Shown here: in pieces, positions 1,425-53,203 of the stretch
Layout of the letters: each line of letters opens with the position of its first letter
Position numbering within the stretch: position 1 is the stretch's first letter
Assembly (NCBI RefSeq): GCF_050920415.1
Contig: NZ_CP169309.1
DNA length: 64,000 bases
Strand: one strand, 5' to 3'
Source: Escherichia coli
Lineage (GTDB): Bacteria; Pseudomonadota; Gammaproteobacteria; Enterobacterales; Enterobacteriaceae
Notes under the pieces: generated by a model
The model's input: the letters and a program-made list of their open reading frames with translations, nothing else
Databases searched by the model: none
What the model was told of the DNA's origin: nothing
Translations under genes and position numbers: made by a program

Positions 1425-3223
1425 GTTACTTTGGCCTTAATCCAGTAAACCAGAATCAGCAGCTTGACGAAGCAGCATCAAATCCAGCTGGCTTTAACAG
1501 CGATGTTGGTTTTTTCGACAATGCTGTAGGAGCGGCATTGTCTGGTTTGTACTCCGGGCTGGTGGCAAAGCCAGATCAGTTGCTCTGGGCAGGGATGGAT
1601 AAAATCGTATCCCCGATTGCTCAGTTTGTTAACGAAAACACCTCGCTCAATGACACTTCAGTTTCATACATTGCCGAGCAGAGAAAACTAGCAGAGCAGC
1701 AGGTTAAGCGGCTGACGCCTGATGCCGCGACAACCGGAACCGCCGGGCAGGTTCTTTATGGGTTGTTCGATATGGGCGGGCAGGCTGTTATCGGTACAAC
1801 GCTCGGTGGTCCGGCCGGAGGTGCTGCGGCGGTAACTTCGCTACAGGGTTTTTCTGAGTTTGAACGGCTGACAGCACAGGGTGTTGATTTCAGGACGGCG
1901 CAGGAAGCGGGATTAGTGCAGGGTATTACTGCTGGTGCCGGAACAATGATCCCTATGAGCCTCGGGTTACGTGCTGGTGGTGCGCTGGCGGAAGGTGTGG
2001 CGGCTCAGCTTGCGCGGACGGGTGAAAGTTCAGTGCGACGCGCCGCAGCAACAGCAGTAAGTGCAACGCCAGATATTGCCTATGCCGCAGGTACAAATAT
2101 TGCGTTCGGTATGGCACAGCGTGGGCTTACTGCAAAAACGCTTCGTGATGGTGGCTATAGCGAAATGGCTAACCAGTATGATGTGTTGGATCGACAGGCA
2201 ATTGCTATTGATGCTGTTCTTGGGGTGGCGTTTGGTGGTGTCGGCAGATTTATTAACTCTCGCGGCGAGTCTACAAGCGCACCAAATTTTTCACCAGTTG
2301 ATATTGATGCTGCACTGGCGGCGAATGCCGCTCATCATGCTGAAATTGATATTGCGCCCGGCGTGCCGATCAACGTGCTTTCGCGCAATTCTCACATTCA
2401 GGCTCTGCGAAAAGCTATGTCTGATGTTAGCCAGGGGAGACCTGTAGACGTTGCCAGCATTGTTGAGTCTGCATCTTTCAGTGAAATTCCTGGGCGCAAG
2501 AGTCTGCTGTCTCAGGCAGTTAATGAGGCTCTGTCATCTGTAGATGATGGAGTAACGGCGCGCGCTATAGAAAATCGGTTGCTTGAAGAACAGGCCGCGC
2601 AGCTTTTGCCGCGTGGAGATAGACAGGTTTACCAGTCTGAAATCGCTAATAGCCAACGAATTATTGAAAATCTCACTGAACAGCGTGCACAAATTCTTGC
2701 AGAAGAGCCAACCGGTAGCGGTAAAGCTTTGTCTCGTGCTCGATCAGATAAACAGGCCAGACTTCGTGATATTGATCAACGAATCCGGCAGGCACAAGAA
2801 CGCCTGGAATTTTCCCGTAACGCGTTGGCACCGCACGAGCCTGGAGGTCAGTTTTTTGAAGCTCGAGCAGAACTGGCACGGCGACAGCAGGCAGAAAGTG
2901 AACTTAATGCTCAGGCTGTTTCATTCTATAAAACAGCAGAGGTCAGGACGCCAGACGAAGTAGCTCCTTTTGAGCCCGGTAAGATATTGCAACAGACAGA
3001 ACAAAAAATGATGGCAGATCCGGCAGGAGATATTGATCTGCGTATAGCTGAAGACTCGCTGCTTGAATCACCTGACATGATAATCACCGTGCTGGATGAT
3101 GATGGTAATCCACAATCGCGCAGTGCGCGTGAAGTACTGGATGAAGCTAACAGGGAAAGTGAGCAGGCAATACAGGATTCCAGCCTGTTTGATGTTGCTG
3201 TGGCGTGTTTCTTGAGAGGTTAA
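1421..3223 (+). CDS. Phage virion internal/ejection-type protein (600 aa)
   Basis: 600-aa ORF translationally coupled to the upstream ORF (ATGA overlap); Gly/Ala-rich segments and a coiled-coil-like Q/R/E-rich region. No catalytic motif recognised by eye. Confidence 0.5.
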   Translation: MSYFGLNPVNQNQQLDEAASNPAGFNSDVGFFDNAVGAALSGLYSGLVAKPDQLLWAGMDKIVSPIAQFVNENTSLNDTSVSYIAEQRKLAEQQVKRLTPDAATTGTAGQVLYGLFDMGGQAVIGTTLGGPAGGAAAVTSLQGFSEFERLTAQGVDFRTAQEAGLVQGITAGAGTMIPMSLGLRAGGALAEGVAAQLARTGESSVRRAAATAVSATPDIAYAAGTNIAFGMAQRGLTAKTLRDGGYSEMANQYDVLDRQAIAIDAVLGVAFGGVGRFINSRGESTSAPNFSPVDIDAALAANAAHHAEIDIAPGVPINVLSRNSHIQALRKAMSDVSQGRPVDVASIVESASFSEIPGRKSLLSQAVNEALSSVDDGVTARAIENRLLEEQAAQLLPRGDRQVYQSEIANSQRIIENLTEQRAQILAEEPTGSGKALSRARSDKQARLRDIDQRIRQAQERLEFSRNALAPHEPGGQFFEARAELARRQQAESELNAQAVSFYKTAEVRTPDEVAPFEPGKILQQTEQKMMADPAGDIDLRIAEDSLLESPDMIITVLDDDGNPQSRSAREVLDEANRESEQAIQDSSLFDVAVACFLRG

Positions 3224-3786
3224 ATTAAATGAGACAGGAATGTATACAAGCGGTCCAGCAGGCGGCGCAGCGCACGTTAACGGCGCGAGAAATACAGAAC
3301 ATTGAAGACCGCATTTATCGCAATATGCGCTCCATTGCTCGTGATGACCCTATGTCGTGGCGACAACTTTCCGAGTCAGAGCGGCTGTATCGTGCAGCAC
3401 AATTGGCATCTGAAGAATTACAGCGAGAAGCGGCATTAAAGAAACGTCGTGTGGCTCTCACTATAGCTGCACGTCAGAGATTGGATAAATTTATCAATAG
3501 CTATCAAGGGGCTGATGGGAAACTTGGCGCTCTTAACCGTACTATAGCTTTTAATGCAGACGGTAAATCTAATTTCCTCTCTGTTGAATCCAGAACAAAA
3601 GCCACCCGTGATTATGCATTGAGTCAATTGCAGGAGGCATTCGAAGCAGTTGATCCTCGCTTTTTTGGTCTGTTTGAAGATGAAGCGGGCGTACGTAGAC
3701 TGGCCCCCTGAATCTCCAGACAACCAGTATCACTTAAATAAGTGATAGTCTTAATACTAGTTTTTAGACTAGTCATTGGAGAACAG

Positions 3787-4152
3787 ATGATTGATGTCTT
3801 AGGGCCGGAGAAACGCAGACGGCGTACCACACAGGAAAAGATCGCAATTGTTCAGCAGAGCTTTGAACCGGGGATGACGGTCTCCCTCGTTGCCCGGCAA
3901 CATGGTGTAGCAGCCAGCCAGTTATTTCTCTGGCGTAAGCAATACCAGGAAGGAAGTCTTACTGCTGTCGCCGCCGGAGAACAGGTTGTTCCTGCCTCTG
4001 AACTTGCTGCCGCCATGAAGCAGATTAAAGAACTCCAGCGCCTGCTCGGCAAGAAAACGATGGAAAATGAACTCCTCAAAGAAGCCGTTGAATATGGACG
4101 GGCAAAAAAGTGGATAGCGCACGCGCCCTTATTGCCCGGGGATGGGGAGTAA
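3787..4152 (+). CDS. insC: IS2 transposase OrfA (InsC)
   Basis: Translation [41 protein letters not shown]... recognised as IS2 InsC; ORF track starts 15 codons upstream at an ATG within the left inverted repeat. Confidence 0.9.
4104..4110 (+). other. A6G slippery heptamer, putative -1 programmed frameshift site joining insC and insD
   Basis: AAAAAAG at the 3' end of insC inside the insC/insD overlap; IS3-family elements produce the OrfAB transposase by -1 frameshifting at such sites. Confidence 0.55.
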
Positions 4153-5015
4153 GCTTAGTCAGCCGTTGTCTCCGGGTGTCGCGTGCGCAGTTGCACGTCA
4201 TTCTCAGACGAACCGATGACTGGATGGATGGCCGCCGCAGTCGTCACACTGATGATACGGATGTGCTTCTCCGTATACACCATGTTATCGGAGAGCTGCC
4301 CACGTATGGTTATCGTCGGGTATGGGCGCTGCTTCGCAGACAGGCAGAACTTGATGGTATGCCTGCGATCAATGCCAAACGTGTTTACCGGATCATGCGC
4401 CAGAATGCGCTGTTGCTTGAGCGAAAACCTGCTGTACCGCCATCGAAACGGGCACATACAGGCAGAGTGGCCGTGAAAGAAAGCAATCAGCGATGGTGCT
4501 CTGACGGGTTCGAGTTCTGCTGTGATAACGGAGAGAGACTGCGTGTCACGTTCGCGCTGGACTGCTGTGATCGTGAGGCACTGCACTGGGCGGTGACTAC
4601 TGGCGGCTTCAACAGTGAAACAGTACAGGACGTCATGCTGGGAGCGGTGGAACGCCGCTTCGGCAACGATCTTCCGTCGTCTCCAGTGGAGTGGCTGACG
4701 GATAATGGTTCATGCTACCGGGCTAATGAAACACGCCAGTTCGCCCGGATGTTGGGACTTGAACCGAAGAACACGGCGGTGCGGAGTCCGGAGAGTAACG
4801 GAATAGCAGAGAGCTTCGTGAAAACGATAAAGCGTGACTACATCAGTATCATGCCCAAACCAGACGGGTTAACGGCAGCAAAGAACCTTGCAGAGGCGTT
4901 CGAGCATTATAACGAATGGCATCCGCATAGTGCGCTGGGTTATCGCTCGCCACGGGAATATCTGCGGCAGCGGGCTTGTAATGGGTTAAGTGATAACAGA
5001 TGTCTGGAAATATAG
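4110..5015 (+). CDS. insD: IS2 transposase OrfB (InsD), DDE integrase-like
   Basis: 301-aa ORF overlapping insC in the -1 frame; sequence ...[50 protein letters not shown]... recognised as IS2 InsD. Confidence 0.9.
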
Positions 5016-7048
5016 GGGCAAATCCAGTACGTGACCTGGTATATGAAATGCGGGGGCAAAATACTGGCAATGCTAAAGCAAGAAAAGGTGCTAAGGCGTG
5101 GAGAGAAGTTACAGAGCTGCTGCGCCGCCGGTTTAATGATGCTGGTGGGGACATTGGCTATCTCGAAAACTGGGGGATCCCTCAACATCATTCTATGGAA
5201 AAGGTTGGGGCGGTATCAAAGGATAAGTGGGTTAGCGATGTTATAGGTAAGCTGGATCGCAAATATTATATCCGAGCCGATGGACAACTGATGAACGATG
5301 CCGAGTTGTCTGCATTTCTTGGAGAGGCTTATAACACGATCGCTACTGGTGGGCTGAATAAGCTTACTGATACCGGAATGCGAATTTCCGGCGCACGTGC
5401 TAACCGTGGTAATGCATCACGACAGATACATTTCAAAGATGCAGATTCCTATCTGCAATATCAGCAACTTTATGGCGATCGCTCTCTATGGGAAATCATG
5501 GTCGGTCACCTGGAAGGTATCAGTAAAGATATTGCACTGGTGGAAACATATGGCCCAAACCCCGATCATGTTTTCCGCTCTCTTCTTGATCAGGTGAAGG
5601 CAGAAACGGCAACAGCTAACCCGAGTAAAACCGGTAAAGTCGAGCGGCTGGCGAACAACACAGAGAATCTGTACAACTTTATTTCCGGAAAGACACAGCC
5701 TGTAGCAAATCCGCACATCGCGCGATGGTCTGACAATATCCGCAACTGGCTGGTTGCCAGCAGACTCGGATCCGCGTTGCTGTCATCGTTCTCTGATCTT
5801 GGAACCATGTATCTGTCTGCGAAGGTGACCAACCTTCCAATGAACCAGTTATTCCGCAACCAGCTTGAAGCTATGGACCCAACGAACCGTACTGAGCTTG
5901 CGCGGGCGCGCCGCGCTGGTCTGGCGATGGAATCTCTACTTGGCAGCGTTAACCGCTGGGCGATGGATAATATGGGGCCGTCAGTGTCTCGTTGGGCTGC
6001 AACGGCGGTAATGCGTGCCAGTGGGCTTACAGCATGGTCAGATGCGCACAAGCGCGCCTATGGCGTAACCATGATGGGAAGCCTGGGAGAAGTAGTGTCA
6101 CGGACACCAGACCTTCGTAGCCTCGATGACTCTGATTTTCGTATCCTGAAAAGCAAAGGGATTACTGACACAGACTGGAGCGTATGGAAGCTGGCGCAAC
6201 AGGAGGACTGGGGGAACGGTAATAATACGATGCTGACACCGGAAAGCATTATGCGTATCCCTGATTCAGCAGTTAAACATCTTGGTGAGCCTGAACGCGT
6301 GAAATTTGAGGCAATGCGTAAACTGCTCGGTGCCGTAACTGAAGAAGTTGATATGGCTGTTATTACACCGGGAGCACGTGAGCAACTGATAACCGGTTCT
6401 GGTATTCAGCGTGGAACATGGAAAGGTGAATTAACGAGAAGTGTTTTCCTGTTTAAATCGTTCCCTATCTCGGTGGTTATGCGTCACTGGTCACGCGCTA
6501 TGGGTATGCCGTCTGCTGGTGGGCGTGCGGCATATATTGCGACGTTTATTGCCAGCACGACCATTCTTGGCGCTTTGTCTCAGCAACTTAACGACCTTGC
6601 GTCTGGTCGTAATCATCGCGAGATGACAGGAGAAGATGCTGCTAAATTTTGGCTTGGTGCTCTACTGAAAGGTGGTGGTCTTGGCCTTTACGGTGACTTT
6701 TTATTGTCAGATCACACTAGGTACGGAAGCGGCGCGCTGGCGTCGATGCTTGGCCCGGTAGCTGGTCTGGTTGATGACGTAGTGAAGATTGCTCAGGGCA
6801 TACCGTTAAATGCTGTGGAAGGGAAGAATGAGCAGACTGGTGGTGATCTGGTTAAGCTGGGGAAGGGGCTGATGCCAGGTGCGAATCTCTGGTACTTGAA
6901 GGCGGCTCTCGATCACATGATCTTTAACCAGATGCAGGAGTATTTTTCACCAGGCTATTTGCGTAAAATGGAGCAACGTTCGAAGAAAGAGTTTAACCAG
7001 ACATACTGGTGGCGACCACAGGATGTCACTCCGCAATAAGGATGAGAA

Positions 7049-7189
7049 ATGATTGCTTTTATTCTTGTTGTGTTTGCGCTTGTTGCACTTGGCGTTATGA
7101 ACCGTAAATGTATCATTGACGATGGCGAATTTGCTGTTGCAGTTATTTTGATATTATCTGGTGTAGCAGGATACATAGGCTTGTCATAA
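7049..7189 (+). CDS. Hypothetical small hydrophobic peptide (46 aa, two predicted hydrophobic segments)
   Basis: ATG at 7049 preceded by AAGGATGAG 4-10 nt upstream; translation MIAFILVVFALVALGVMNRKCIIDDGEFAVAVILILSGVAGYIGLS; stop TAA 7187-7189; followed by palindromes and a terminator. Too short for the ORF track. Confidence 0.35.
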   Translation: MIAFILVVFALVALGVMNRKCIIDDGEFAVAVILILSGVAGYIGLS

Positions 7190-7209
7190 CGTGAGTGTGA
7201 CATGTCACA

Positions 7210-7233
7210 GGCCGCTTTCGCGGCCTTTTCTTT
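7210..7233 (+). terminator. Rho-independent terminator (GGCCGC-TTTC-GCGGCC followed by TTTTCTTT)
   Basis: 6-bp GC stem with 4-nt loop followed by a T-run on the + strand; preceded by the perfect palindrome TGTGACATGTCACA (7196-7209). Overlaps the stop codon of the convergent minus-strand ORF. Confidence 0.5.
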
Positions 7234-7489
7234 ATGTGGTTTGTTTTCGTAGTTGTTCGGCACAATAGTCGAGATGTGTTTGCAGATCCTGCATAGACAT
7301 CTGTGAGCTGGTGACGTAGTTAATCAGTGCAGTCAGTTCGGCAAGTGGGCCATCGACATTAAATCCATCCTTATCGAGATCCCGGAGTAATTTCATCAAG
7401 TGCGATCCTTCCACCAGTGACCTGACGCCTCCCGGCGTGTGAATCCTTTCGGTAAATCCCTCTTCCAGTGGATAGTGATACTGCTGCAT
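7232..7489 (-). CDS. Hypothetical small acidic protein (85 aa from the ATG at 7489) behind a LexA box
   Basis: ORF track gives 7232..7507 from a TTG; a better start is the ATG at 7489 (MQQYHYPLEEGF...) with GGAGAAG 7 nt upstream. A strong LexA box lies about 20 nt upstream. No family recognised by eye. Confidence 0.5.
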   Translation of the reverse strand: MQQYHYPLEEGFTERIHTPGGVRSLVEGSHLMKLLRDLDKDGFNVDGPLAELTALINYVTSSQMSMQDLQTHLDYCAEQLRKQTT

Positions 7490-7508
7490 CTTATCTTCTC
7501 CATGCAAT

Positions 7509-7528
7509 AACTGTATGTTTATACAGTA
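7509..7528. promoter_or_regulatory. LexA (SOS) box AACTGTATGTTTATACAGTA
   Basis: CTGT-N8-ACAG with an AT-rich spacer, 17/20 match to the E. coli consensus TACTGTATATATATACAGTA; sits in the divergent region between the small minus-strand ORF and the tailspike gene. Confidence 0.6.
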
Positions 7529-7684
7529 TCAAATAATTTGTTTGCTATCCAGCACGTTTTGCGAATCACCTGAAAGGTAATATCTGCTCACATTAACACT
7601 CTTTCCATCCATATATGGTTTTTCAGGTAATAGAATAACCAGATATGCGGCGCAACGGGTGCTGCGACTATCTGGAGATTTAAC

Positions 7685-9940
7685 ATGACGGTCTCAACCG
7701 AAGTTGACCACAACGAATACACAGGCAATGGCGTTACGACTTCATTCCCTTATACCTTTAGGGTTTTCAAGGAATCTGATCTGGTAGTGCAGGTGGTTGA
7801 CCTTGACGAAAATATCGCTGTGCTGGCTCTGGATACTGATTACACTGTCACTGGGGCTGGTGGATATAACGGCGGTAATGTAATTCTGTCGAAGGCGTTA
7901 GCTAACGGTTACCAGATTTCTATATCACGAGAGCTCCCGGTTACGCAGGAAACTGATTTGCGTAATCAGGGGAAGTTCTTTGCAGAAGTGCATGAGGATG
8001 CTTTTGATAAGCTAACGATGCTGATCCAGCAGGTTCGAAGTTGGTTTAGCTTGGCGCTGCGCAAGCCGTCATTCGTGGCAAATTATTATAACGCGCTGAA
8101 CAACTATATTCGAAACCTGAAAGACCCGGTAAACCCGCAGGATGCATCCACAAAGAATTATGTGGACAGTACGGTTTTATCGAATATCGACCATACAATC
8201 CGTGTTCCTGATTCTTATATCGATCCGCTGCCACCTCTCGCTCAACTTGAAGGAAGCATAATCGGCATCGCCAACGGTAAGCCCGTTCCGTTCCCTGTGC
8301 CTTCAGGAACGGCGGCTGACGTATTCAACCAGTTGGCCAGCAGCGCTGACGGGAAAGGTGATGCGCTGATAACAGTGAAGCAGCCTTACCAGGGGGCAAT
8401 TTCTCTTTCGCAGCATATAAAAAATGCACAAGCCATTAGTGTTGTTGATTTTGGAGCGACAATTGATGGAACGCTTCACCCTTTAAGCGAGATATTTTCA
8501 ACACTATCAGCTGCTCAGATGGTATATCCATTTGTTTCATCTCTATCTCAATCTGTTGATTATGCTGCGCTTCAGTCCGCATGTAACACGGGAAAAACAG
8601 TGCTTATTCCAAAGGGAACTGGTTACTATAATTCAACTATTTTTCTGAAAAACTCCGTTAGGATTGTTGGAGAGGGAACTGATACAATAAATAGAGCGCA
8701 ATCATTTATGTCTATTGTTGGTAATATTTCAGCCTTTGCTTTAGATCAAGGTGATTCCCTATCGACAAAAATGATTCAGATTTTTATTGATGGTCTTTAT
8801 ATTTTCTATGATCCAGGAACCACACCAACGAATCCTGAAAATGATGGTGGGAAAATTGCATTTAATTTCTACTCGACAATTCCAAATTCAACAAGCTTGG
8901 AAATGTCTGAAATTAAAAACTGTACAGTTCATGGTGCATGGTCATGCTTTAATGATCAGACTGGCACATACTTGACAAAACTTACGAATGTGTGGGCCAG
9001 AAACTGCCATAATGGTTTTACAAAAGGAACTGGCACTACCATTCTGATGGAAAGATGTTATACATCTGGATGTATATCACCATATCAGTTTGGTTCTGTC
9101 TTTGCAGCTACAATGATTAACTGTGCCATGGATGGATCAAATATTTCGTTAAACGCAGGTTCGCTTGGTGGGGCTGGCGTTCATGTTCTTAACACACATA
9201 GTTTTAACATTATTGGTTTTGATGCGGAGGGTAACACCATCTCTACAGATGGTTATGGAGAGGCAGCACTATTCCATTTCGAAAATAGTAGTGGTGGCAT
9301 TTCTGGCCTGACTGCACATCAGAACAGCATGCGAAGTGTTGCGCCAAGTGATGCTGGTGTAGTTTCCTACATCAGGGCGTCAGGTAGCAGCGATGTTAAA
9401 ATTGAGTCATCAGAAGATGATTTATCTGACACCAACACAGTTGCATATACTGGGTCTGGGTATCCCATCATGCTACATGCAACTGACACAGCTAAAATAA
9501 GCGTCTTTAATAGCAGATTCAGGGCGACTACCACTGGTACCCCTGTCTTAAGTACGCTAAGTACTGGTGATGTATCATGGTATGACTGCCCTAAAAAAAC
9601 AGGACTTATCGTAGATGGTTATTCACAAATAACATCTAAGGAAGGATTGCAAACATCATGCTTCTATACCAGTAAAGGCTCTACTGCTGTTGCTGAAAAT
9701 ACTCCGACAACACTTTTCTCTCTACCAGATTCGCAAGGTACTTACATTATTAGCGTATGGGTGGCTGGAAGCGGAGAAAATTACGCATCTACACAACTGG
9801 CAATGTATGATGGAGATAAGCTAATTCTTGTTGCGTTAAAAATAGCAGCATTTCTTAGTTTTTCAGCAACAGGGAGAATTGTAACCATTACAAGCCAGGT
9901 GGCAGGCACTTTAAACTGGACTTACACTAAAATAGGTTGA
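7685..9940 (+). CDS. Phage tailspike / tail fibre (751 aa), probable O-polysaccharide-specific receptor-binding protein
   Basis: N-terminus MTVSTEVDHNEYTGNGVTTSFPYTFRVF... has the Y-x-G-x-G...F...F signature of podovirus tail-fibre/tailspike particle-binding domains; from memory it resembles epsilon15/phiV10-type tailspikes (unverified). The C-terminal two thirds are visibly AT-rich and Ser/Thr/Asn/Gly-rich, consistent with a beta-helical receptor-binding domain. Confidence 0.75.
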   Translation: MTVSTEVDHNEYTGNGVTTSFPYTFRVFKESDLVVQVVDLDENIAVLALDTDYTVTGAGGYNGGNVILSKALANGYQISISRELPVTQETDLRNQGKFFAEVHEDAFDKLTMLIQQVRSWFSLALRKPSFVANYYNALNNYIRNLKDPVNPQDASTKNYVDSTVLSNIDHTIRVPDSYIDPLPPLAQLEGSIIGIANGKPVPFPVPSGTAADVFNQLASSADGKGDALITVKQPYQGAISLSQHIKNAQAISVVDFGATIDGTLHPLSEIFSTLSAAQMVYPFVSSLSQSVDYAALQSACNTGKTVLIPKGTGYYNSTIFLKNSVRIVGEGTDTINRAQSFMSIVGNISAFALDQGDSLSTKMIQIFIDGLYIFYDPGTTPTNPENDGGKIAFNFYSTIPNSTSLEMSEIKNCTVHGAWSCFNDQTGTYLTKLTNVWARNCHNGFTKGTGTTILMERCYTSGCISPYQFGSVFAATMINCAMDGSNISLNAGSLGGAGVHVLNTHSFNIIGFDAEGNTISTDGYGEAALFHFENSSGGISGLTAHQNSMRSVAPSDAGVVSYIRASGSSDVKIESSEDDLSDTNTVAYTGSGYPIMLHATDTAKISVFNSRFRATTTGTPVLSTLSTGDVSWYDCPKKTGLIVDGYSQITSKEGLQTSCFYTSKGSTAVAENTPTTLFSLPDSQGTYIISVWVAGSGENYASTQLAMYDGDKLILVALKIAAFLSFSATGRIVTITSQVAGTLNWTYTKIG

Positions 9941-9975
9941 TGTTATGCGTGGGGAGCAATGCTCCCCATCATCAA

Positions 9976-11835
9976 TTAAAAAATAAATGGCTTGTCATTT
10001 TTTAATTTTTTCCCAAACTCCCTTGAGCCTTCTAGAGTGAAATGACTATTATCAAAGTAAAGATAATCACCTTTAGTAGAAAGGATGTCACAATTCATTG
10101 ACTTTCCGCACTGCTCGGCAAGCGTATCTATGTATTTATACGAATGCTGGTTGCTACCAAGATAGCCTTTTATCGTATTGTTAATTTCAACTCTACTATT
10201 GTCATAATACTTTTTAGAGTATTTATTTATCCCATCAACTGTGTTTACGCCAGATTTAAAAGCAGACTTAATTATTTCCATTGGCTGTGCCGTAAACTTC
10301 ATCTTAGGCCCAAATACAATAACTTCTCCTTTAGTCCTCTCCTGTATTTTGCCTATAGAGTAAAGCATCCCGAACAGATCGCCAACGCCATAATCATCAT
10401 GAAGGATTATAATGTTAGCTTCAGCTATGGCTGGAGATGAGATTACGTCATTGAATATTTTTTTGCACTTTTCTACATAGGGCATGTCGTTTGGTGTATA
10501 ACCAAAGTTTGAACATAAGTTTGTAGTTCTTATATAAGTTATATCACCCTTCATCCCATTTTCAGTAAGTGCATAAGTCAGATCTATGCCATGAGAATTA
10601 CCGATTATTACTATTTTTTTGTCACCTGTCTTCGGTACAGGGTGAGGCTTGTCTCCATCAACCCAATACCTGTTCATTTGTTCTTTTAGCTGTTCGGACG
10701 TCATTGTGGCAAACGAAAACCTTGATGGAATTCCAGATAGCAATAGTACAGCGAAGCACAAACCAACTACACCACCTACAGGTAGCACGATTGAAGTTAA
10801 TTCATTCAAGGACCTGCCGTTTTTAAATTTTGAAAGTGCCTTTCTTGAAGGGTTTTCAATTAAATAAAATGATGCGGCACCAATAAGAATTGATAAGGCA
10901 ACACCTGATACTGTATAAACCATATCATCCATCTTATTCATTGACATATATACAACTATGGGCCAGTGAACCAGATATACCGAGTATGAAATTTTCCCAA
11001 CCCATTGAGATAATGCATTATCAAGTAATAGGTTATCTTTACATCCAAGATAAATGACAAAGAAAGTAGAAACGACTGGTATTAAGGCAAGATACCCAGG
11101 CCACTTCATTAAGCTGTTAAGCAAGACTATCCCCGATACTGCAAAGGCTATGGCAATCCATCTAAATACAGCAGTGCGTTTTGAATTTTGTATAGTAGGA
11201 AGAAGGTAGGCAAGGCCGCCAGCCAGCATCTCCCAAGCTCTGCTTGACAGAAGATAAAATGCAGCGCCCTGATTATTATAAGAAAGATACACTGAGGCAG
11301 TAAATGATATAATTGCAAGGATGGCAACAACATACCTTATATGCTTAGCGCCCAATAGCTTTGCAATCACCATCATTATGATTGGATATACCATGTAAAA
11401 CTGCCACTCTACAGAAAGCGACCATGTATGAAGAAGCCATTTCTGCTTTGATGCAGTATCAAAATAATCAATGCTATGGTAATACTCAACGTTTGAGAAA
11501 AATAAAAGGCTACTTCTTACGTGTTGAGCCAGGTATTCATATTCAGAAGGTAAAAGAATGAAGTAACCAACTATCAGAACAGCAACTGAAACTACAGTTA
11601 AAGCAGGTATAATTCTTCTTGCCCTATCAAGATAAAATCCTAACAGTGAAAAGTTTCCATTAGATATCTTTGTGTAAATTATTCCAGTCATCAGATACCC
11701 TGATATAACAAAGAATATATCTACGCCTGAAAATCCACCAGAGAACCCTTTGACTCCGAAGTGATAAAGGACAACTGCCATAACAGCAATAGCCCTAAGC
11801 CCGCCTATATCTGTTCTGTATTTTAAAGAAGACAT
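9976..11835 (-). CDS. Membrane acyltransferase-3 family protein with C-terminal SGNH-like domain; probable O-antigen acetyltransferase (OafA/Oac-like)
   Basis: 619 aa; N-terminal R-x10-H motif (RTDIGGLRAIAVMAVVLYH) and about 10 hydrophobic helices typical of acyltransferase-3; C-terminal soluble domain with a GNSH block. Strongly AT-rich gene, convergent with the tailspike. Confidence 0.8.
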   Translation of the reverse strand: MSSLKYRTDIGGLRAIAVMAVVLYHFGVKGFSGGFSGVDIFFVISGYLMTGIIYTKISNGNFSLLGFYLDRARRIIPALTVVSVAVLIVGYFILLPSEYEYLAQHVRSSLLFFSNVEYYHSIDYFDTASKQKWLLHTWSLSVEWQFYMVYPIIMMVIAKLLGAKHIRYVVAILAIISFTASVYLSYNNQGAAFYLLSSRAWEMLAGGLAYLLPTIQNSKRTAVFRWIAIAFAVSGIVLLNSLMKWPGYLALIPVVSTFFVIYLGCKDNLLLDNALSQWVGKISYSVYLVHWPIVVYMSMNKMDDMVYTVSGVALSILIGAASFYLIENPSRKALSKFKNGRSLNELTSIVLPVGGVVGLCFAVLLLSGIPSRFSFATMTSEQLKEQMNRYWVDGDKPHPVPKTGDKKIVIIGNSHGIDLTYALTENGMKGDITYIRTTNLCSNFGYTPNDMPYVEKCKKIFNDVISSPAIAEANIIILHDDYGVGDLFGMLYSIGKIQERTKGEVIVFGPKMKFTAQPMEIIKSAFKSGVNTVDGINKYSKKYYDNSRVEINNTIKGYLGSNQHSYKYIDTLAEQCGKSMNCDILSTKGDYLYFDNSHFTLEGSREFGKKLKNDKPFIF

Positions 11836-11982
11836 AATCGCTATCGTTTTGAGTAAGATGCATTAATGATATCACCTTTAGGGTAATTTCGTTAAGAGTT
11901 ATCCGATCAAATTTAATCCACATATGGTTTATTGTGTATGATGAACTCACCAACTAAGGGGGTTCTTTATGCACAATAAACG

Positions 11983-12396
11983 GTGGTCACTATGGCGCAT
12001 GTGCTGACAACAGAGTCAGTAAATCAGGGGTTAAGCCTGACTGCACTGGCGTCCGTGTTCGTTGGTATACCGCCTGAGGTGGCTTTAGGTGCTCTTGCTG
12101 GTGCGGTAATTTTTGTTACCTCAGCGGTTGAGTATCCGATAAAGCGTAGGTTGCTCCTGGCGCTCCTAAGCTTCCTCTGCGGCGTTCTCTTCTATAAAGC
12201 GACAGCTTCCATTCTGATTGGCTTTGCCAGCCTGATACCAACGATTACGCAGGACTCTTTTGAGAAGGGCATTGTGTATTCCGCCGGGGCATTCGTGTCT
12301 GCAATCGTCGCTGTTCGCATTGGCATCTGGCTGTATCACCGTTCTGAAAATCCGCGCGACATGATCCCGGGGAGAAAAGACGATGACCAGTCCTGA
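11983..12396 (+). CDS. Putative holin (137 aa multi-span membrane protein)
   Basis: First gene of a + strand cluster ending in endolysin and Rz/Rz1; several hydrophobic helices and a charged C-terminus; two closely spaced in-frame Met codons (MVTMAHV). Holin call is positional. Confidence 0.5.
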   Translation: MVTMAHVLTTESVNQGLSLTALASVFVGIPPEVALGALAGAVIFVTSAVEYPIKRRLLLALLSFLCGVLFYKATASILIGFASLIPTITQDSFEKGIVYSAGAFVSAIVAVRIGIWLYHRSENPRDMIPGRKDDDQS

Positions 12397-12676
12397 TCTG
12401 CTTCTCATCCTTAACGCCGCTATCTGCGGTGGCATTGCAATCCGAGTGCTTCTGTTCCGCCGTGACGGGTCACGTCACCGCTGGTGGGGTGGGTGGCTCG
12501 CCTATCTGCTGATCGTCGTGGCAGCCAGCGTACCTATCCGGACTTTCTACGGGTACTACGTCAGCGCCGACTGGTCAGAAGTCATCATCAAAGCCGTGTT
12601 CCTGGCTGCGCTCATCAAGACAAAAGGGAACGTGGTGCAAATTTTCAAGATAACGAGGTCCCAGCATGGACATTAA
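12383..12676 (+). CDS. Putative second holin/antiholin-like membrane protein (97 aa)
   Basis: Overlaps the end of the previous ORF and the start of the endolysin gene; two or three hydrophobic segments; basic C-terminus. Confidence 0.45.
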   Translation: MTSPDLLLILNAAICGGIAIRVLLFRRDGSRHRWWGGWLAYLLIVVAASVPIRTFYGYYVSADWSEVIIKAVFLAALIKTKGNVVQIFKITRSQHGH

Positions 12677-13295
12677 CCAATTCCAGCGTGCAGCTGGCAT
12701 CAGTGAGGTGCTGGCCGCGCGCTGGTACCTGCATATCACCGCAGCCATGAAAGAGTTTGGCATCGAGCAACCGCTGCACCAGGCGATGTTTATCGCGCAG
12801 GTGGGGCATGAGTCTACTGGTTTCACCCGGCTGCAGGAAAACTTCAACTACAGCGTTGCAGGGCTCGCAGGATTCGTCCGCGCCGGGCGACTTACTCAGG
12901 GTCAGGCCAACGCGCTGGGCCGCCGTGCTGGCGAGCCATCGTTACCGCTGGAGCGCCAGCGCGCGATCGCCAATCTGGCGTACAGCAAACGCATGGGGAA
13001 CAATGCCCCTGGTGATGGCTGGAATTACCGTGGCCGCGGACTTATCCAGATTACCGGTTTGAATAACTATCGTGATTGCGGAAACGTCCTGAAAGTGGAC
13101 CTGCTGGAGAATCCTGAACTGTTGGCGCAGGACGAATATGCGGCTCGTAGCGCGGCGTGGTTCTTCGCCAGCAAAGGATGCATGAAGTATACCGGCGATA
13201 TTGCACGTGTAACTCTGATTATCAATGGTGGCCGGAACGGCATCGACGACCGGCGCGCGCGGTACATCACTGCCAGTAAGGTGCTGGCGGTATGA
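12666..13295 (+). CDS. Endolysin, glycoside hydrolase family 19 (chitinase-like lysozyme)
   Basis: 209 aa; motif FIAQVGHESTGF...NYRGRGLIQITG typical of GH19-type phage endolysins; position between holin-like genes and Rz. Confidence 0.85.
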   Translation: MDINQFQRAAGISEVLAARWYLHITAAMKEFGIEQPLHQAMFIAQVGHESTGFTRLQENFNYSVAGLAGFVRAGRLTQGQANALGRRAGEPSLPLERQRAIANLAYSKRMGNNAPGDGWNYRGRGLIQITGLNNYRDCGNVLKVDLLENPELLAQDEYAARSAAWFFASKGCMKYTGDIARVTLIINGGRNGIDDRRARYITASKVLAV

Positions 13296-13774
13296 TCTGG
13301 GCATTCGCAAAAGCATACTGGAAACAGTTGCTTATCGTGGTGATGCTTGCTGTTCTGGTCATATCGGGAATTGTTTCCTGGAATGTACACGGCAGTCGTC
13401 AGTACGATGCCGGGTATGCGCAGGCGAAGGAAGACCGCAAAGCTGAAGATGAGATAGTTCGTCAGCACTACGAACAGGAGAAATCGATCAATGAACGTGA
13501 AGCGCAGCAGAGGATCGACCAGGCGCGCAATGATGCTCTTGATGCTGCCGCTCGCGCTGGCCGGTTGCAGCAACAACTCTTTGCCATCCGTGAGCAGCTC
13601 AGGCAGTATAACGCCATTGTCGGCGCTGGGACGTCAGCCGCAGACACCGGAGTTTTGCTTGCCGACGTGCTCAGCAAATCTCTCGAGAGAAACAGACAAC
13701 TGGCAGAGTATGCTGACCGGGCAGCCGAAGCCGGAAGAGTCTGCGAAAAACAATACGACACCCTGACCAGATAG
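13292..13774 (+). CDS. Rz-like inner-membrane spanin (i-spanin)
   Basis: 160 aa; N-terminal transmembrane helix followed by coiled-coil-prone Q/R/E/A-rich periplasmic domain; ATGA overlap with the endolysin stop; contains an embedded +1 frame lipoprotein ORF. Confidence 0.75.
   Translation: MIWAFAKAYWKQLLIVVMLAVLVISGIVSWNVHGSRQYDAGYAQAKEDRKAEDEIVRQHYEQEKSINEREAQQRIDQARNDALDAAARAGRLQQQLFAIREQLRQYNAIVGAGTSAADTGVLLADVLSKSLERNRQLAEYADRAAEAGRVCEKQYDTLTR
13530..13766 (+). CDS. Rz1-like outer-membrane lipoprotein spanin (o-spanin), embedded in Rz
   Basis: +1 frame ORF wholly inside Rz; from ATG at 13530 the product MMLLMLPLALAGCS... has a signal peptide with lipobox LAGC and a Pro-rich mature part. 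ORF track starts it further upstream at 13491. Confidence 0.7.
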   Translation: MMLLMLPLALAGCSNNSLPSVSSSGSITPLSALGRQPQTPEFCLPTCSANLSRETDNWQSMLTGQPKPEESAKNNTTP

Positions 13775-13884
13775 CATGGCATTTTTCATGGTACTGATTT
13801 CCGGTGACGGTATATAAAACGGTACTAGAAAAATGAAGTTTTGGAAAAATGTTATCACTCAATTGGTTATGATTGTCGTAAATA

Positions 13885-13899
13885 ATTGAGTGGGAATGA
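13885..13899 (+). other. Putative prophage attR core / remnant of the guaA 3' end (ATT GAG TGG GAA TGA = IEWE-stop)
   Basis: 15-nt string encoding the C-terminal residues ...IEWE plus stop of GMP synthase as recalled for E. coli GuaA, in the orientation expected for guaA converging on yfgI; preceded in frame by a stop codon, so it is an isolated gene end, not a gene. Confidence 0.45.
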
Positions 13900-13924
13900 T
13901 TTGATCCCTGCACTATGAATTAGC

Positions 13925-13953
13925 AAAACCCTCTGTTACTACAGAGGGTTTTT
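13925..13953. terminator. Bidirectional rho-independent terminator (AAAA-CCCTCTGT-TACT-ACAGAGGG-TTTTT)
   Basis: Perfect 8-bp stem, 4-nt loop, flanked by A-run and T-run; lies between the guaA-end remnant and the convergent yfgI stop. Confidence 0.65.
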
Positions 13954-13991
13954 ATACTCACGAATCATAGGATTGAAGTTACTGACATCGC

Positions 13992-14531
13992 TTAGTTAAA
14001 CCAGCTGTCCGATTTGTTCTCTTCTGCTTTGCCCACGCTTTTCATCAGATCGCGACCGCCTTCAGTCATATTCCTGTTTGCGTCAGCTTCAGATTGCACC
14101 ACATCGGTTTGCGCAGCTTTGTGCTTCAGTTCCTGATCGATAAATTCGTTTTCTCGCTTAACGCGGGCTTCTTCTTTCGCCAGCGCCAGTTTTTGTTTCT
14201 GAATCTCTAAGCTGCGTAGCTCATCTTCATAACTTTGATCGCGTTTCTTGTCCGCAGTGGCTTCGGCGTCCAGTTTATCCTGACGAGCTTTCTTATTCGC
14301 CGCTGCCGTTGCCGCTCTTTTATTAGCCGCGGCCTGGGCGTTTGCGCGACGTTGCTTCTCTTGCTGGATTTCCCTGTTGCGCTCCGCGACCCATTCGTCA
14401 TGCTGCCTTTGCTCTTCATTTTTACCTTGCTGTTCCGCTTCTGCGACAGCAGAGAGTTGATCCTGCAATGATGAGGCGATAGCCGGATAGCTTAAGGAGG
14501 CTAAGATGGCGCAAAGAAAAACTTTCTTCAT
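13992..14531 (-). CDS. yfgI: YfgI, periplasmic protein (179 aa)
   Basis: Signal peptide MKKVFLCAILASLSYPAIA followed by a highly charged coiled-coil-like region; length and position match E. coli yfgI. Confidence 0.85.
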   Translation of the reverse strand: MKKVFLCAILASLSYPAIASSLQDQLSAVAEAEQQGKNEEQRQHDEWVAERNREIQQEKQRRANAQAAANKRAATAAANKKARQDKLDAEATADKKRDQSYEDELRSLEIQKQKLALAKEEARVKRENEFIDQELKHKAAQTDVVQSEADANRNMTEGGRDLMKSVGKAEENKSDSWFN

Positions 14532-14546
14532 GACTCCTCCTGATTA

Positions 14547-15065
14547 TTAGCTCTTTTCAGGACATTTGGTATTTGGCTGAATACGCGTTTCGTTATACGT
14601 CGTGGTAATAACAACGGCTAAACCTGTCGTAAACTGGCACTCTTTACCCACCTGGGTGGAGGTATACACTTTGGTGCCTTCCTTATACGTTAGAGAAACA
14701 CCTTCCACTAAGGTTTTATCATTCACCATAGAACCTGCTGCCGCGCCAACAGCTCCGCCGCCAACTGCACCTGCCGTCGTTCCGGAATTGCTGCCAGACC
14801 CCACGTTGTGGCCGATAACACCGCCAGCGACTGCACCAATAAGCGCGCCGAAGGCTTGTGCGTTTCGTTTATTTTGGGAGTTGTCTACGGCAACTTTTGC
14901 GGGAAGAATGGAAATAATATTAACGGTTTTAGTTTCTTGTTTGGTATTCAGTTGATCGGTTTGATAAACATCGGCGGCATGATCATCAGCATTTGACTGG
15001 CATCCTGCCAGAGTGAATGACGCTAACATTGCCACAGGCAGAAGACATTTTTTAAATTTCATCAC
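14547..15065 (-). CDS. yfgH: YfgH, outer-membrane lipoprotein with glycine-zipper region (172 aa)
   Basis: Lipobox LAGCQ; Gly-rich GxxxG repeats (GALIGAVAGGVIGHNVGSG...); matches E. coli yfgH. Confidence 0.85.
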   Translation of the reverse strand: MMKFKKCLLPVAMLASFTLAGCQSNADDHAADVYQTDQLNTKQETKTVNIISILPAKVAVDNSQNKRNAQAFGALIGAVAGGVIGHNVGSGSNSGTTAGAVGGGAVGAAAGSMVNDKTLVEGVSLTYKEGTKVYTSTQVGKECQFTTGLAVVITTTYNETRIQPNTKCPEKS

Positions 15066-15375
15066 TATTCCTTGTTATACACATTACGAAAAATAAGACA
15101 TTTAAGATCATCAAAAGAGGAAAGTAAATGTATTGCGTATAAAGGAATAGATTAAATTTATTAAAATTCATGTGGAAAATAATTTATAAAAATACATCAT
15201 TAAAACATATGTATTAATTTTATATTTATTTCGCAGCCAAACAGGATAAACATCAGTCAGGACAAAGACGTAAAATTTAAGATGAAAGAATATCTGCCGC
15301 TTTGATAATCCCAAAGAGCAAAAGCATCCGACAGCGAGGTGCCGTTATGTTCTGTGAAAGTGGAGAAGGTAACCG

Positions 15376-15567
15376 CTAACGTTGTACCGGTGATTCGACG
15401 GAGAGTGTGGATTGCTGAGCTTCTTTTTTGCTCTGATGGTGCTGCCATGCACCGACGGACGAGTAGATAAAACGGCCAAAGAAGAAGATAAAGCTGATGA
15501 GCAGTACGATACGGGTCATGCGACTGTTAAATCGGTGTCGTTTTCGCATACTGGTTGCCTGACTCAC
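15376..15567 (-). CDS. yfgG: YfgG, small membrane protein (63 aa)
   Basis: Translation MSQATSMRKRHRFNSRMTRIVLLISFIFFFGRFIYSSVGAWQHH... matches E. coli YfgG as recalled. Confidence 0.8.
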   Translation of the reverse strand: MSQATSMRKRHRFNSRMTRIVLLISFIFFFGRFIYSSVGAWQHHQSKKEAQQSTLSVESPVQR

Positions 15568-17042
15568 AAAAGGTTCCTTGAAGTATGTCCCACGCCGTGG
15601 ACGGTACTTACATTAAGGCACAACAGGACAAAATGGTCAATTCTTCGTTATGTAAAAAAGCGTCAGTGGATACATATTTTAATGTTATGGAAGTTAATTT
15701 AATTATTTACAATGATGATGTAATAATGATGAATTAACATGATAAACGTAATAATTCATTAATCAGGGTTATTTTGTTTGATATATATCAATTGGAACTT
15801 TCATATGACACTTAGAATCAATGCTCTCTATAGTGATGAATAATCATCATTCGAAGTCAGGTGGGATGCCTGTCTGAATACACCTCCTTCAGGATGTGGG
15901 GGATTCTGCTGAGCATCTATGAAACTGAATGCAACCTATATAAAAATACGTGATAAATGGTGGGGGCTTCCGCTGTTCCTGCCTTCTTTAATCTTGCCCA
16001 TTTTCGCCCATATTAATACTTTCGCGCATATTTCTTCCGGTGAGGTTTTTCTCTTTTACCTGCCTTTGGCACTGATGATCAGCATGATGATGTTTTTCAG
16101 CTGGGCGGCATTGCCAGGGATCGCCTTAGGGATTTTTGTTCGCAAATATGCAGAGCTGGGTATTTACGAAACGCTCTCATTAACAGCTAATTTTATTATC
16201 ATTATCATTCTCTGTTGGGGCGGTTACAGGGTCTTTACTCCCCGGCGTAACAACGTTTCACATGGTGATACCCGTTTAATTGCCCAGCGTATATTCTGGC
16301 AGATTGTATTTCCTGCAACGCTGTTTCTAATACTTTTCCAATTTGCTGCGTTTGTTGGATTACTGGCGAGCAGAGAAAATCTGGTCGGCGTCATGCCCTT
16401 TAACCTCGGGACCTTAATCAATTATCAGGCCTTGCTGGTAGGTAATCTGATTGGTGTCCCGCTGTGCTATTTCATCATTCGGGTGGTGCGAAATCCGTTT
16501 TATTTACGCAGCTATTATTCGCAATTAAAACAGCAAGTTGATGTCAAAGTCACCAAAAAAGAGTTCGCGCTCTGGCTACTGGCATTAGGTGCGTTGTTGT
16601 TGCTGTTATGCATGCCGTTAAATGAAAAAAGCACGATTTTCAGCACCAATTATACCTTGTCATTATTGCTACCCCTGATGATGTGGGGAGCCATGCGCTA
16701 TGGTTATAAGTTGATTTCGCTGCTCTGGGCGGTCGTGCTGATGATTAGCATCCACAGCTATCAAAATTACATTCCCATTTATCCTGGCTATACCACGCAA
16801 CTGACCATAACCTCCTCCAGTTATCTGGTATTCTCTTTTATTGTCAATTATATGGCTGTACTGGCAACCCGTCAGCGAGCGGTAGTCAGACGCATTCAGC
16901 GGCTTGCGTATGTGGACCCGGTGGTTCATCTGCCAAATGTTCGCGCCCTGAATCGCGCGTTGCGTGATGCCCCCTGGTCTGCGCTTTGTTATTTACGCAT
17001 TGAACCGCCCCGGGTTTCCTGGAGAGTGTTTTATCTGTGAAC

Positions 17043-17930
17043 TCAGGCTGCCAGATCATTGTTTCCGATGGAAGCATAATAAGCTTTTTCTGCTTCTGCC
17101 GGAGGAGTATGGCCCAGCCTTCCCAGCAATCGTCGATTGTTATACCAGTCCACCCACGTGAGTGTGGCCAGTTCCACTTCTGCACGGTTTTTCCAGCTCT
17201 TACGGTGTATTACCTCCGCTTTGTAAAGACCATTGATGCTCTCAGCCATCGCGTTGTCATACGAGTCGCCTGTACTCCCTGTTGATGCCAGCAGTTTTGC
17301 TTCTTTTAGTCGCTCCGTATAGGCCAGTGACACATACTGAGAGCCTTTATCGCTGTGATGGATGGTGCCAGACGGACGACGGGCCCACAACGCCTGCTCC
17401 AGCGCATCCAGCACGAATGTCGTTTCCATAGACGATGAGACCCGCCACCCCACGATGTATCCGGCAAACACATCAATGATGAACGCCACATAGACGAAGC
17501 CCTGCCATGTGCTGACGTAAGTAAAATCAGCCACCCACAGCTGGTCAGGACGTTCTGCCACGAACTGACGGTTTACGCGGTCACCTGTGGCAACGGTTTT
17601 CCGGCTGACGGTAGTGCGGACCTTTTTACCCCGGAGAACACCGGCAAGTCCCATAACCGCCATGAGGCGCGCCACTGTACATCTGGCCACCCTGATTCCT
17701 TCCCGTAACAACTGACGCCAGACTTTACGCACACCGTACACCTGATGATTTTCATCGTATACGCGCTGTATCTCTCTCTTCAGCCAGTCATCGCGCTGCG
17801 CACGGGCACTGCGTTTATCAGGATGATGCCGCTGCTGCTGACAATGGTAATACGTTGACGGGGCAATATGCAGTTCACTGCATACCGGTCCGACCCCGTA
17901 CTGCTCACGCAGCTTATCCAGCAGTGGCAT
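17043..17930 (-). CDS. IS3-family transposase OrfB (DDE integrase domain)
   Basis: 295 aa; ...HSDKGSQYVSLAYTERLKEAKLLASTGSTGDSYDNAMAESINGLYKAEVIHRKSW... typical IS3-family OrfB. Confidence 0.9.
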   Translation of the reverse strand: MPLLDKLREQYGVGPVCSELHIAPSTYYHCQQQRHHPDKRSARAQRDDWLKREIQRVYDENHQVYGVRKVWRQLLREGIRVARCTVARLMAVMGLAGVLRGKKVRTTVSRKTVATGDRVNRQFVAERPDQLWVADFTYVSTWQGFVYVAFIIDVFAGYIVGWRVSSSMETTFVLDALEQALWARRPSGTIHHSDKGSQYVSLAYTERLKEAKLLASTGSTGDSYDNAMAESINGLYKAEVIHRKSWKNRAEVELATLTWVDWYNNRRLLGRLGHTPPAEAEKAYYASIGNNDLAA

Positions 17931-18256
17931 TATTTTTTCCAGAGGCGGTCGAACTCCGCCTTCGCAAAATAAGCGGAAGCCTGGCGAAGGATATCGTTAC
18001 TGCGGCGCAGTTCACGATTTTCACGTTCCAGCTCTTTCAGACGCTGACGTTCAGCGGTGGTGAGCCCACCATCACCGCTCCCGGTATCCCTCTCATGCTG
18101 GCGAACCCAGACACGCAGAGTCTCTGGCGTACAGCCAATCTTTGGAGCAATGGAACAAATTGCCGCCCATTGTGAGTCATATTCGCCCTGACTTTCCAGA
18201 ACCATACGAACTGCGCGTTGACGGACTTCGGGGGAAAAACGAGTATTTTTAGTCAT
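17930..18256 (-). CDS. IS3-family transposase OrfA (helix-turn-helix, leucine zipper)
   Basis: 108 aa [57 protein letters not shown]...; ends in an A6 run (plus-strand T6 around 17933-17938) at the OrfA/OrfB junction, the likely frameshift window. Confidence 0.9.
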
Positions 18257-19480
18257 CCTGTTTACCTCTTTCTCAGGAAGTTTAGTCTCCAGGATTTCCG
18301 GGGCGGTTCACATCCCCGGCATGGAAATGCTGGTTAAGAACTATGGCATCATGCTACGGATTCAATACAAGCAAAAACTTTCTCACTGGCTGTCACCATT
18401 GCTGGAACCGGGTGAAGATGTTTATCAGCTTTCGGGTAACGATCTCGCGCTGCGACTGAATACAGAAGCGCACCAGGAGCGCATTACCGCACTGGATAGC
18501 CATCTCAAGCAATTTCGTTTCTTTTGGGATGGAATGCCGATGCAACCGCAGATTGGCGTCAGTTACTGCTATGTGCGCTCGCCAGTGAATCATATCTACT
18601 TACTGCTGGGAGAGCTAAATACGGTTGCTGAACTCTCCATCGTGACCAACGCCCCGGAAAATATGCAGCGTCGCGGGGCAATGTATTTGCAACGCGAATT
18701 GAAAGATAAAGTCGCGATGATGAATCGGCTACAGCAGGCGCTGGAACACAACCATTTTTTCCTGATGGCCCAGCCGATTACCGGTATGCGTGGTGATGTC
18801 TACCATGAGATCCTTCTGCGCATGAAAGGTGATAATGATGAACTGATCAGCCCCGACAGCTTCTTGCCGGTCGCGCACGAATTTGGTTTATCGTCGAGTA
18901 TCGACATGTGGGTCATTGAGCATACGCTGCAATTTATGGCTGAAAACAGAGCGAAGATGCCCGCTCACCGTTTTGCTATTAATCTGTCGCCAACCTCGGT
19001 ATGTCAGGCTCGTTTTCCATTTGAAGTCAGTCAGTTGCTGGCTAAATATCAAATTGAAGCGTGGCAACTTATTTTTGAAGTCACCGAAAGTAATGCTCTG
19101 ACCAATGTTAAGCAGGCGCAGATCACCTTGCAGCATCTTCAGGAATTAGGCTGCCAGATTGCGATTGATGATTTCGGAACCGGCTACGCCAGCTATGCAC
19201 GGCTTAAAAATGTGAATGCCGATCTGCTTAAAATTGACGGCAGTTTTATCCGCAATATTGTGTCAAATAGTCTGGATTATCAGATAGTGGCGTCGATTTG
19301 CCACCTGGCGCGAATGAAGAAAATGCTGGTAGTGGCAGAGTACGTTGAAAACGAAGAGATCCGCGAGGCGGTGCTCTCTTTGGGGATCGATTATATGCAG
19401 GGTTATCTTATTGGTAAGCCGCAACCGTTAATTGATACGCTGAATGAAATCGAACCCATTCGCGAAAGTGCCTGAATAAT

Positions 19481-24991: not shown

Positions 24992-25036
24992 TTACTTGCG
25001 GTAGAAAAATAAAATTCGGCGCAATTCTAACAGGGA

Positions 25037-25052
25037 AAGCAAACGTTTGCGA
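25037..25052. promoter_or_regulatory. PurR operator (PUR box) AAGCAAACGTTTGCGA upstream of purMN
   Basis: Palindrome GCAAACGTTTGC matching the PurR box consensus, 64 nt upstream of the purM GTG. Confidence 0.7.
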
Positions 25053-25249
25053 GACTGCTTTACACAACCTTTTTGCACTTCATTTTCCCAAGCGCGCGGC
25101 GAAAGAATAGCTGCACCGTGGCAAAGGAGAGTTTTTGGATGGAATAATATTCTTTCATAACCACATGAATATAAAGTAACTTTATCTAAAACCGTTATCA
25201 TTTTGACTAAAGTCAACGAAAATAATATTGCCGCCTTGAAGAAAGGAGG

Positions 25250-25270
25250 TATAATCCGTCGATTTTTTTT
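25250..25270 (+). promoter_or_regulatory. upp promoter -10 (TATAAT) and T8 initiation tract (UTP-sensitive start-site selection / reiterative transcription)
   Basis: TATAAT at 25250-25255 followed by CCGTCGATTTTTTTTG; matches the arrangement described for the E. coli upp-uraA promoter. Confidence 0.55.
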
Positions 25271-25297
25271 GTGGCTGCCCCTCAAAGGAGAAAGAGT

Positions 25298-25924: not shown

Positions 25925-25940
25925 AGAATAAAAATAATTA

Positions 25941-25969
25941 AAGCCGACTTTAAGAGTCGGCTTTTTTTT
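25941..25969 (+). terminator. Intrinsic terminator/attenuator between upp and uraA (AAGCCGACT-TTAAG-AGTCGGCTT + T8)
   Basis: 9-bp stem and 5-nt loop followed by TTTTTTTT, 17 nt after the upp stop. Confidence 0.6.
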
Positions 25970-26009
25970 GAGTAAAGCGCCTATAACACATAATACAGAG
26001 GATAATACT

Positions 26010-53118: not shown

Positions 53119-53203
53119 GCCTGGTAGGCCTGATAAGACGCGTGAGCGTCGCATCAGGCATCGTTCACCATTGCCGGATGCGGCATTAACGCCTTATCCG
53201 GCC
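53119..53203. repeat. REP/BIME cluster (two inverted REP units)
   Basis: GCCTGATAAGACGCGTGAGCGTCGCATCAGGC and TGCCGGATGCGGCATTAACGCCTTATCCGGCC between convergent ypfH and ypfN. Confidence 0.55.

Follow-up and report, generated by a model that had tools for sequence, protein, structure and literature searches.

The window, by which we mean the whole stretch of 64,000 nucleotides that was analyzed, covers the last 13.9 kb of a prophage and the E. coli chromosomal DNA to the right of it. Window positions 1-13774 encode Uetakevirus virion proteins, a tailspike, an O-antigen acetylase, holins, an endolysin and Rz/Rz1. On the basis of PHROG and Pfam matches and of synteny, this late region is collinear with phages phiV10 and epsilon15 and with the prophage of E. 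coli LS45 in its internal virion proteins, tailspike, O-antigen modification gene and lysis part, the last made up of two holins, a GH19 endolysin and Rz with an embedded Rz1. The DNA of Rz/Rz1 is about 85% identical to that of phiV10 p30/p30a. The main features of the phage portion are the following:

3696-5026: complete IS2 of 1331 bp (InsC/TnpA at 3742-4152, InsD/TnpB at 4110-5015) with the target duplication GTACG (3691-3695 and 5027-5031)
7685-9940, + strand: 751-aa tailspike (phrog_8649), of which only the N-terminal ~260 aa resemble other tail proteins
9976-11835, - strand: 619-aa O-antigen acetylase with Acyl_transf_3 and SGNH domains (phrog_6705), convergent with the tailspike gene
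13292-13774, + strand: Rz-like spanin, the last gene of the prophage (phrog_312, phrog_11621; DUF2514 in related lysogens)
13491-13766, + strand: Rz1 lipoprotein ORF embedded in Rz, taken from the ORF list

At the DNA level, the module of tailspike and acetylase was found in one of 5426 complete E. coli genomes (FT130, 97.5%), and the exact 619-aa acetylase protein occurred in 17 contigs of public assemblies. The tailspike and the 619-aa AT3-SGNH acetylase together could represent a new serotype-converting specificity. A 68-aa phage protein gave more than 44,000 collection blocks, with matches among unrelated lysogens.

To the right of Rz the phage genes give way to the host chromosome through a short non-coding segment, the features of which are:

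13775-13884, + strand: non-coding P arm of attR, derived from the phage, between the Rz stop and the core
13804-13813, + strand: GTGACGGTAT, predicted arm-type integrase-binding site
13853-13865, + strand: TATCACTCAATTG, predicted IHF-like site with one mismatch to WATCAANNNNTTR (pattern check)
13885-13901, + strand: 17-bp att core ATTGAGTGGGAATGATT, common to attP, attB, attL and attR
13902-13991, + strand: host B' flank, i.e. guaA-yfgI intergenic DNA, collinear with K-12 downstream of guaA
13925-13952, no strand assigned: native guaA/yfgI terminator hairpin AAAACCCTCTGT-TACT-ACAGAGGGTTTT, a perfect inverted repeat of 12 bp
13992-14531, - strand: yfgI, the host gene next to the right prophage end (stop at 13992), for which matching E. 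coli genomes give the annotation yfgI / DUF5384

Two further observations concern the host portion of the window. An ORF of 366 aa at 24992-26092 (- strand) was judged spurious, as it has no family match and is antisense to upp/uraA. At 53127-53203 (- strand), between an ORF end at 53116 and dapE (53439-54566), Rfam reports naRNA4 (RF02564, 89 bits, gathering level), a nucleoid-associated, REP-derived RNA and an ordinary feature of E. coli.

The attachment core and the limits of phage and host DNA

The 15-mer ATTGAGTGGGAATGA (ATT GAG TGG GAA TGA) is located on the + strand at 13885-13899, between the Rz stop (13774) and the convergent yfgI stop (13992). It is identical to the final 15 nt of guaA of E. 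coli K-12, four codons for IEWE and the stop; the 3' end of this gene reads GGC AAG CCG CCA GCT ACC ATT GAG TGG GAA TGA (...GKPPATIEWE*). Translation of 13855-13899 in the frame of the 15-mer yields SLNWL*LS*IIEWE*, with an in-frame TAA at 13879-13881 and a single ATA codon between this TAA and the ATT. In K-12, guaA and yfgI are convergent neighbors with a prophage-free gap of 92 bp. The exact match to K-12 and the ORF coordinates agree with the preliminary description, which had noticed a guaA end preceded by an in-frame stop codon between Rz and yfgI, in an interval that carries no prophage in K-12.

The shared motif was determined by extracting every copy with its flanks from K-12 attB, from attP of phiV10 and epsilon15, from both prophage ends of E. 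coli LS45 and FT130 and from the window, and by aligning the window to the five comparison sequences. It is a core of 17 bp that comprises the guaA codons I-E-W-E, the stop codon and two further nucleotides, and the comparison with attP of epsilon15 and phiV10 that had been recommended from the outset found it in both phages. To the left of the core, attB and attL continue with 'gccagctacc' (guaA coding sequence), whereas attP and attR continue with 'cgtaaata' (phage P arm); to the right, attB and attR share 'tgaccc/tgatccc...' (host), whereas attP and attL share 'aacagctaac...' (phage P' arm). The window has the phage flank on the left and the host flank on the right and is therefore, by definition, an attR; the flanks of attB, attP, attL and attR recombine exactly as a P-O-B' hybrid demands.

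Homology searches place the limits at the same bases. Megablast homology to phages (phiV10, epsilon15, SPN1S, ZX5 and more than 30 others) extends from the holin genes to 13900-13902 and ends there, the last matching base for phiV10 and epsilon15 being 13901-13902, and homology to K-12 starts at 13885 and runs via the guaA terminator, yfgI, yfgH, yfgG, pdeF and ppx to ppk. Phage-only DNA thus reaches to 13884, the core occupies 13885-13901 and host-only DNA begins at 13902, and strand exchange would have occurred somewhere inside the core. These limits uphold the initial assignment of an attR to the guaA 3' end. They also refine the boundary first put at about 13884-13899, which was correct to within one base at its start but has to be replaced by the core, 13885-13901. 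We regard it as almost certain that 13775-13953 is the attR of a Uetakevirus prophage (epsilon15/phiV10-like, short-tailed, O-antigen-modifying) at guaA.

The shortness of the guaA fragment and the stop codon just upstream are the only points that would suit a chance match of the 15-mer, or what remained of guaA after its destruction by a host deletion or rearrangement, in the absence of site-specific integration. Against such an origin, the 17-mer occurs only once in the 64-kb window with a chance expectation of 0.02 even when two mismatches are allowed, it is bordered to the base by the attP arm on the left and by the attB flank on the right, and guaA is retained at full length at attL in related lysogens. 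De novo GMP synthesis depends on guaA, and it is established knowledge that its loss would turn the host into a guanine auxotroph. This origin is extremely improbable, and the att-site comparison refutes both the chance match and the guaA deletion. A tRNA or sRNA as the integration target was likewise ruled out: ARAGORN found no tRNA gene in 1-16000, and Rfam reported no family at gathering score at the site (sub-threshold chance matches to rli38, His_leader and mir-101).

The P arm (13775-13884) is nearly identical to the left arm of phiV10 attP and, over the first 50 nt, to epsilon15, while its alignment with the K-12 guaA coding sequence revealed no similarity. The arm-type integrase sites and IHF sites in this arm are predicted from sequence patterns and from the annotation of related phages. 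The 10-mer GTGACGGTAT carries a protein_bind annotation for integrase in the epsilon15 GenBank record, and in phiV10 attP GGTGACGGTAT is present as a direct repeat in the P and P' arms, with one inverted copy near the start of int. At the position equivalent to 13853-13865, the epsilon15 record has an IHF annotation. An imperfect inverted repeat (13856-13872 / 13876-13892) includes the predicted IHF-like site and extends into the core.

On the host side, the first bases after the core (13902-13908) vary: tgaccc in K-12 and FT130, tgatccc in the window and its near-identical relatives, ttgatccc in LS45 and ttaatccc in the host of TL-2011b. This polymorphism looks like variation among host lineages and not like a product of integration. 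The hairpin at 13925-13952 is also present in K-12 and has a folding energy of -17.9 kcal/mol as RNA (z = -3.9); in the window it is parted from guaA and located behind the lysis genes of the prophage. A simple consensus terminator scan of 13600-14100 made no call, the hairpin included, and the likely reason is that the T run of the hairpin, UUUUUAUA, is short and interrupted.

Related lysogens and the state of the prophage

The left prophage end, attL, is located upstream of window base 1, and its structure can be read from related lysogens. In the complete E. coli genomes LS45 and FT130 the gene order is guaA-attL-int...Rz-attR-yfgI, where the second copy of the core ends an intact guaA and is followed, after 190 bp, by a gene for a P4-type tyrosine integrase. 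The LS45 region starts with guaB, the intact guaA (1578 bp), the core, a P' arm with a terminator, the integrase gene (locus 7060-8309, annotated as frameshifted) and early genes; structural genes, tail fiber, holins, endolysin, DUF2514/Rz, the core and yfgI make up the remainder. FT130 has an LS45-like layout with an intact integrase of 416 aa, 414 of which are identical to the phiV10 integrase, but is devoid of the region from replication to terminase, so that the portal gene directly follows genes of the early region. Related guaA prophages are often decayed, as in LS45 and FT130. In the source genome of the window, attL, guaA and int presumably lie ~26 kb upstream of the window start, and attL would be expected to consist of the guaA end GCCAGCTACC, the core, AACAGCTAAC (P' arm), the terminator copy and int.

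A query spanning Rz-attR-yfgI was covered to at least 80% in 359 of the 5426 complete E. coli genomes (about 6-7%), with 98.7% as the best full-length match of the junction in this set. An identical attR beside yfgI is also carried by AP025751.1 and four further assemblies, all five being 99.9-100% identical to the window. A 28-kb Logan contig with the same prophage (SRR6039950_72) terminates on the last base of the core, equivalent to window position 13901. An end at this base is what a branching assembly graph would give if the sample contained attP (or attB) alongside attR, and it hints at excision in the strain concerned.

Two insertion sequences distinguish the window from its closest relatives. 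IS2 divides the gene for an 824-aa virion structural protein (phrog_684) into 3229-3711 and 5000-7039. The second element is located in the host DNA:

17001-18310: IS3-family element of 1310 bp with the target duplication CAT (16998-17000 and 18311-18313)
17859-17975, - strand: ALIL frameshift pseudoknot within this element (Rfam RF01497)

We take this element to be IS629, judging by its terminal sequences. It splits pdeF (yfgF) into ORFs at 15919-17040 and 18321-19475, and near-identical genomes have an uninterrupted pdeF. Near-identical assemblies (99.9-100%, e.g., AP025751.1) are free of both IS elements, and the IS-free allele of the 824-aa gene is present in AP025751.1 and in further assemblies with otherwise 99.99% identity. 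The IS2 insertion is therefore recent, and to judge from these alleles the prophage is probably a recent derivative made defective by IS2.

These disruptions raise the question of whether the site is the fossil end of a decayed and immobile prophage, with attR itself intact but attL or int lost or inactivated, so that the site no longer serves as a recombination substrate. Besides the split virion gene with its 5-bp target duplication (IS2, 3696-5026), the frameshifted int of LS45 and the missing replication and terminase region of FT130 point in this direction, and IS629 in nearby pdeF marks the genome as IS-active. On the other hand, the core is intact in 17 of 17 positions, the P arm is nearly identical to that of attP from the viable phage phiV10, and the existence of an IS-free version of the prophage at 99.99% identity elsewhere dates IS2 as recent. 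We consider a fossil end a real but on the whole doubtful possibility; it concerns only the present function of the site and is compatible with its origin as an attR.

Proposed integration and the terminator copy of the phage

From the arrangement of the four att sites, a P4-type tyrosine integrase would have recombined phage attP with bacterial attB, the exchange occurring within the shared 17-bp core, which covers the final four codons of guaA, the gene for GMP synthase, together with its stop. Integrases of the epsilon15 cluster are P4-like and belong to the IntSXT subgroup of tyrosine recombinases. Integration of this kind would duplicate the core. One copy, attL, would close an unchanged guaA and be followed by the P' arm, a copy of the terminator hairpin and int. 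The other copy would form attR, with the lysis cassette (holins, endolysin, Rz/Rz1) and the P arm before it and the original guaA terminator and yfgI after it. Since the core itself brings the end of the reading frame (four codons and stop), guaA keeps its sequence at attL. The 'IEWE-stop' fragment in the window is a phage-carried or duplicated core and not a decayed gene; as stop codons lie just upstream, there is no reason to expect its translation. The preliminary description had assumed that the phage supplies a replacement gene end at attL. A replacement is indeed supplied, but it is the guaA terminator; for the gene end itself the identical core, which holds the four codons and the stop, is sufficient.

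The replacement can be recognized in the attP regions of phiV10 and epsilon15, both of which contain a near-copy of the guaA hairpin, AACCCTCTGTT-TT-TACAGAGGGTTTTT, annotated in both records as a rho-independent terminator. It constitutes a second block of host homology in attP, separate from the core. Compared with the host hairpin (13925-13952), the phage hairpin (phiV10 locus 5100-5123) has the same 10-bp stem and a different loop, and it begins 44 nt past the core, whereas the host hairpin begins 24 nt past it. Integration would move the native guaA terminator to attR, and the phage hairpin would then stand behind guaA and before the co-oriented int. In this position the phage copy would shield int from guaBA read-through. 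That the hairpin copy is a selected functional replacement, which keeps guaBA termination and insulates the co-oriented int in lysogens, is a speculative proposal that we rate as rather unlikely; if true, it would be a testable case of an element mimicking the 3' regulatory signal of its target.

For the annotation of the genome and for surveys of serotype conversion, the analysis fixes the right prophage boundary to the base and identifies the element as a guaA-integrating Uetakevirus with an O-antigen acetylase. The attachment site, the core sequence and the integrase family are already known from the literature, and no new biology is claimed for them.

Comparison with known elements

According to PMC8138268, epsilon15, CMGI-3 and related elements have integrases of one cluster, for which the 3' flank of guaA is the target, and a phiV10-like phage has been reported at guaA in EHEC O103:H25 (PMC3293862); the GenBank record of this phage, TL-2011b, includes the yfgI flank. 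The use of guaA by epsilon15 follows from PMC8138268 and from its attP sequence. For epsilon15-type phages in general, guaA as the attachment site, initially given as unverified, is supported by the attP sequences and by PMC9782041, PMC8138268 and PMC3293862. Since the guaA 3' flank is also used by non-phage elements (PMC8138268), the att site could in principle belong to a genomic island of the epsilon15-integrase cluster, like CMGI-3, that shares it. Such an origin deserves next to no credence for the window, where 1-13774 holds virion proteins, tailspike, O-antigen acetylase, holins, endolysin and Rz/Rz1 in an order collinear with phiV10, epsilon15 and the complete LS45 prophage; the gene content refutes a non-phage island.

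The closest documented case is the Uetakevirus vB_EcoP_ZX5, integrated in E. coli YO1 (PMC9782041). Its attP/attB core, 'attgagtgggaatgatt', is found in the phage 190 bp 5' of the integrase gene and in the host at the guaA 3' end, and attB, attL and attR were amplified by PCR and sequenced. The Uetakevirus prophage of the window agrees with ZX5 in the identical 17-bp core and its placement at the guaA stop codon, and the ZX5 arrangement, with about 190 bp between attP and the P4-like integrase gene downstream of it and the lysis cassette on the opposite side, is the same as well. It differs from ZX5 in its tailspike, in the 619-aa AT3-SGNH acetylase module and in the IS2 insertion, and the DNA of the lysis regions is about 84.5% identical.

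The type Uetakeviruses phiV10 (NC_007804) and epsilon15 (NC_004775) have the same core as the window. In all three the 50 nt that follow the Rz stop are identical and the predicted Int arm site GTGACGGTAT is the same, and both phages share the order tailspike, O-antigen modification gene, holins, endolysin, Rz/Rz1, attP and int. The tailspike body differs, and the identity of the lysis-region DNA is 80-85%. The cargo for serotype conversion differs, too: phiV10 has a 338-aa Oac, epsilon15 has genes for an O-antigen polymerase and an inhibitor, and the window has the 619-aa acetylase with Acyl_transf_3 and SGNH domains.

In a wider context, the site resembles lambda- and P4-type integration at the 3' ends of genes (e.g., tRNA genes) in its tyrosine integrase, its short identical core and the preservation of the host gene. 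As in these elements, the phage makes good the downstream sequence that integration displaces, here with a terminator hairpin. Unlike elements that target tRNA genes, it inserts at a housekeeping gene that codes for a protein, guaA, and only 15 coding nt of this gene are contained in the core.
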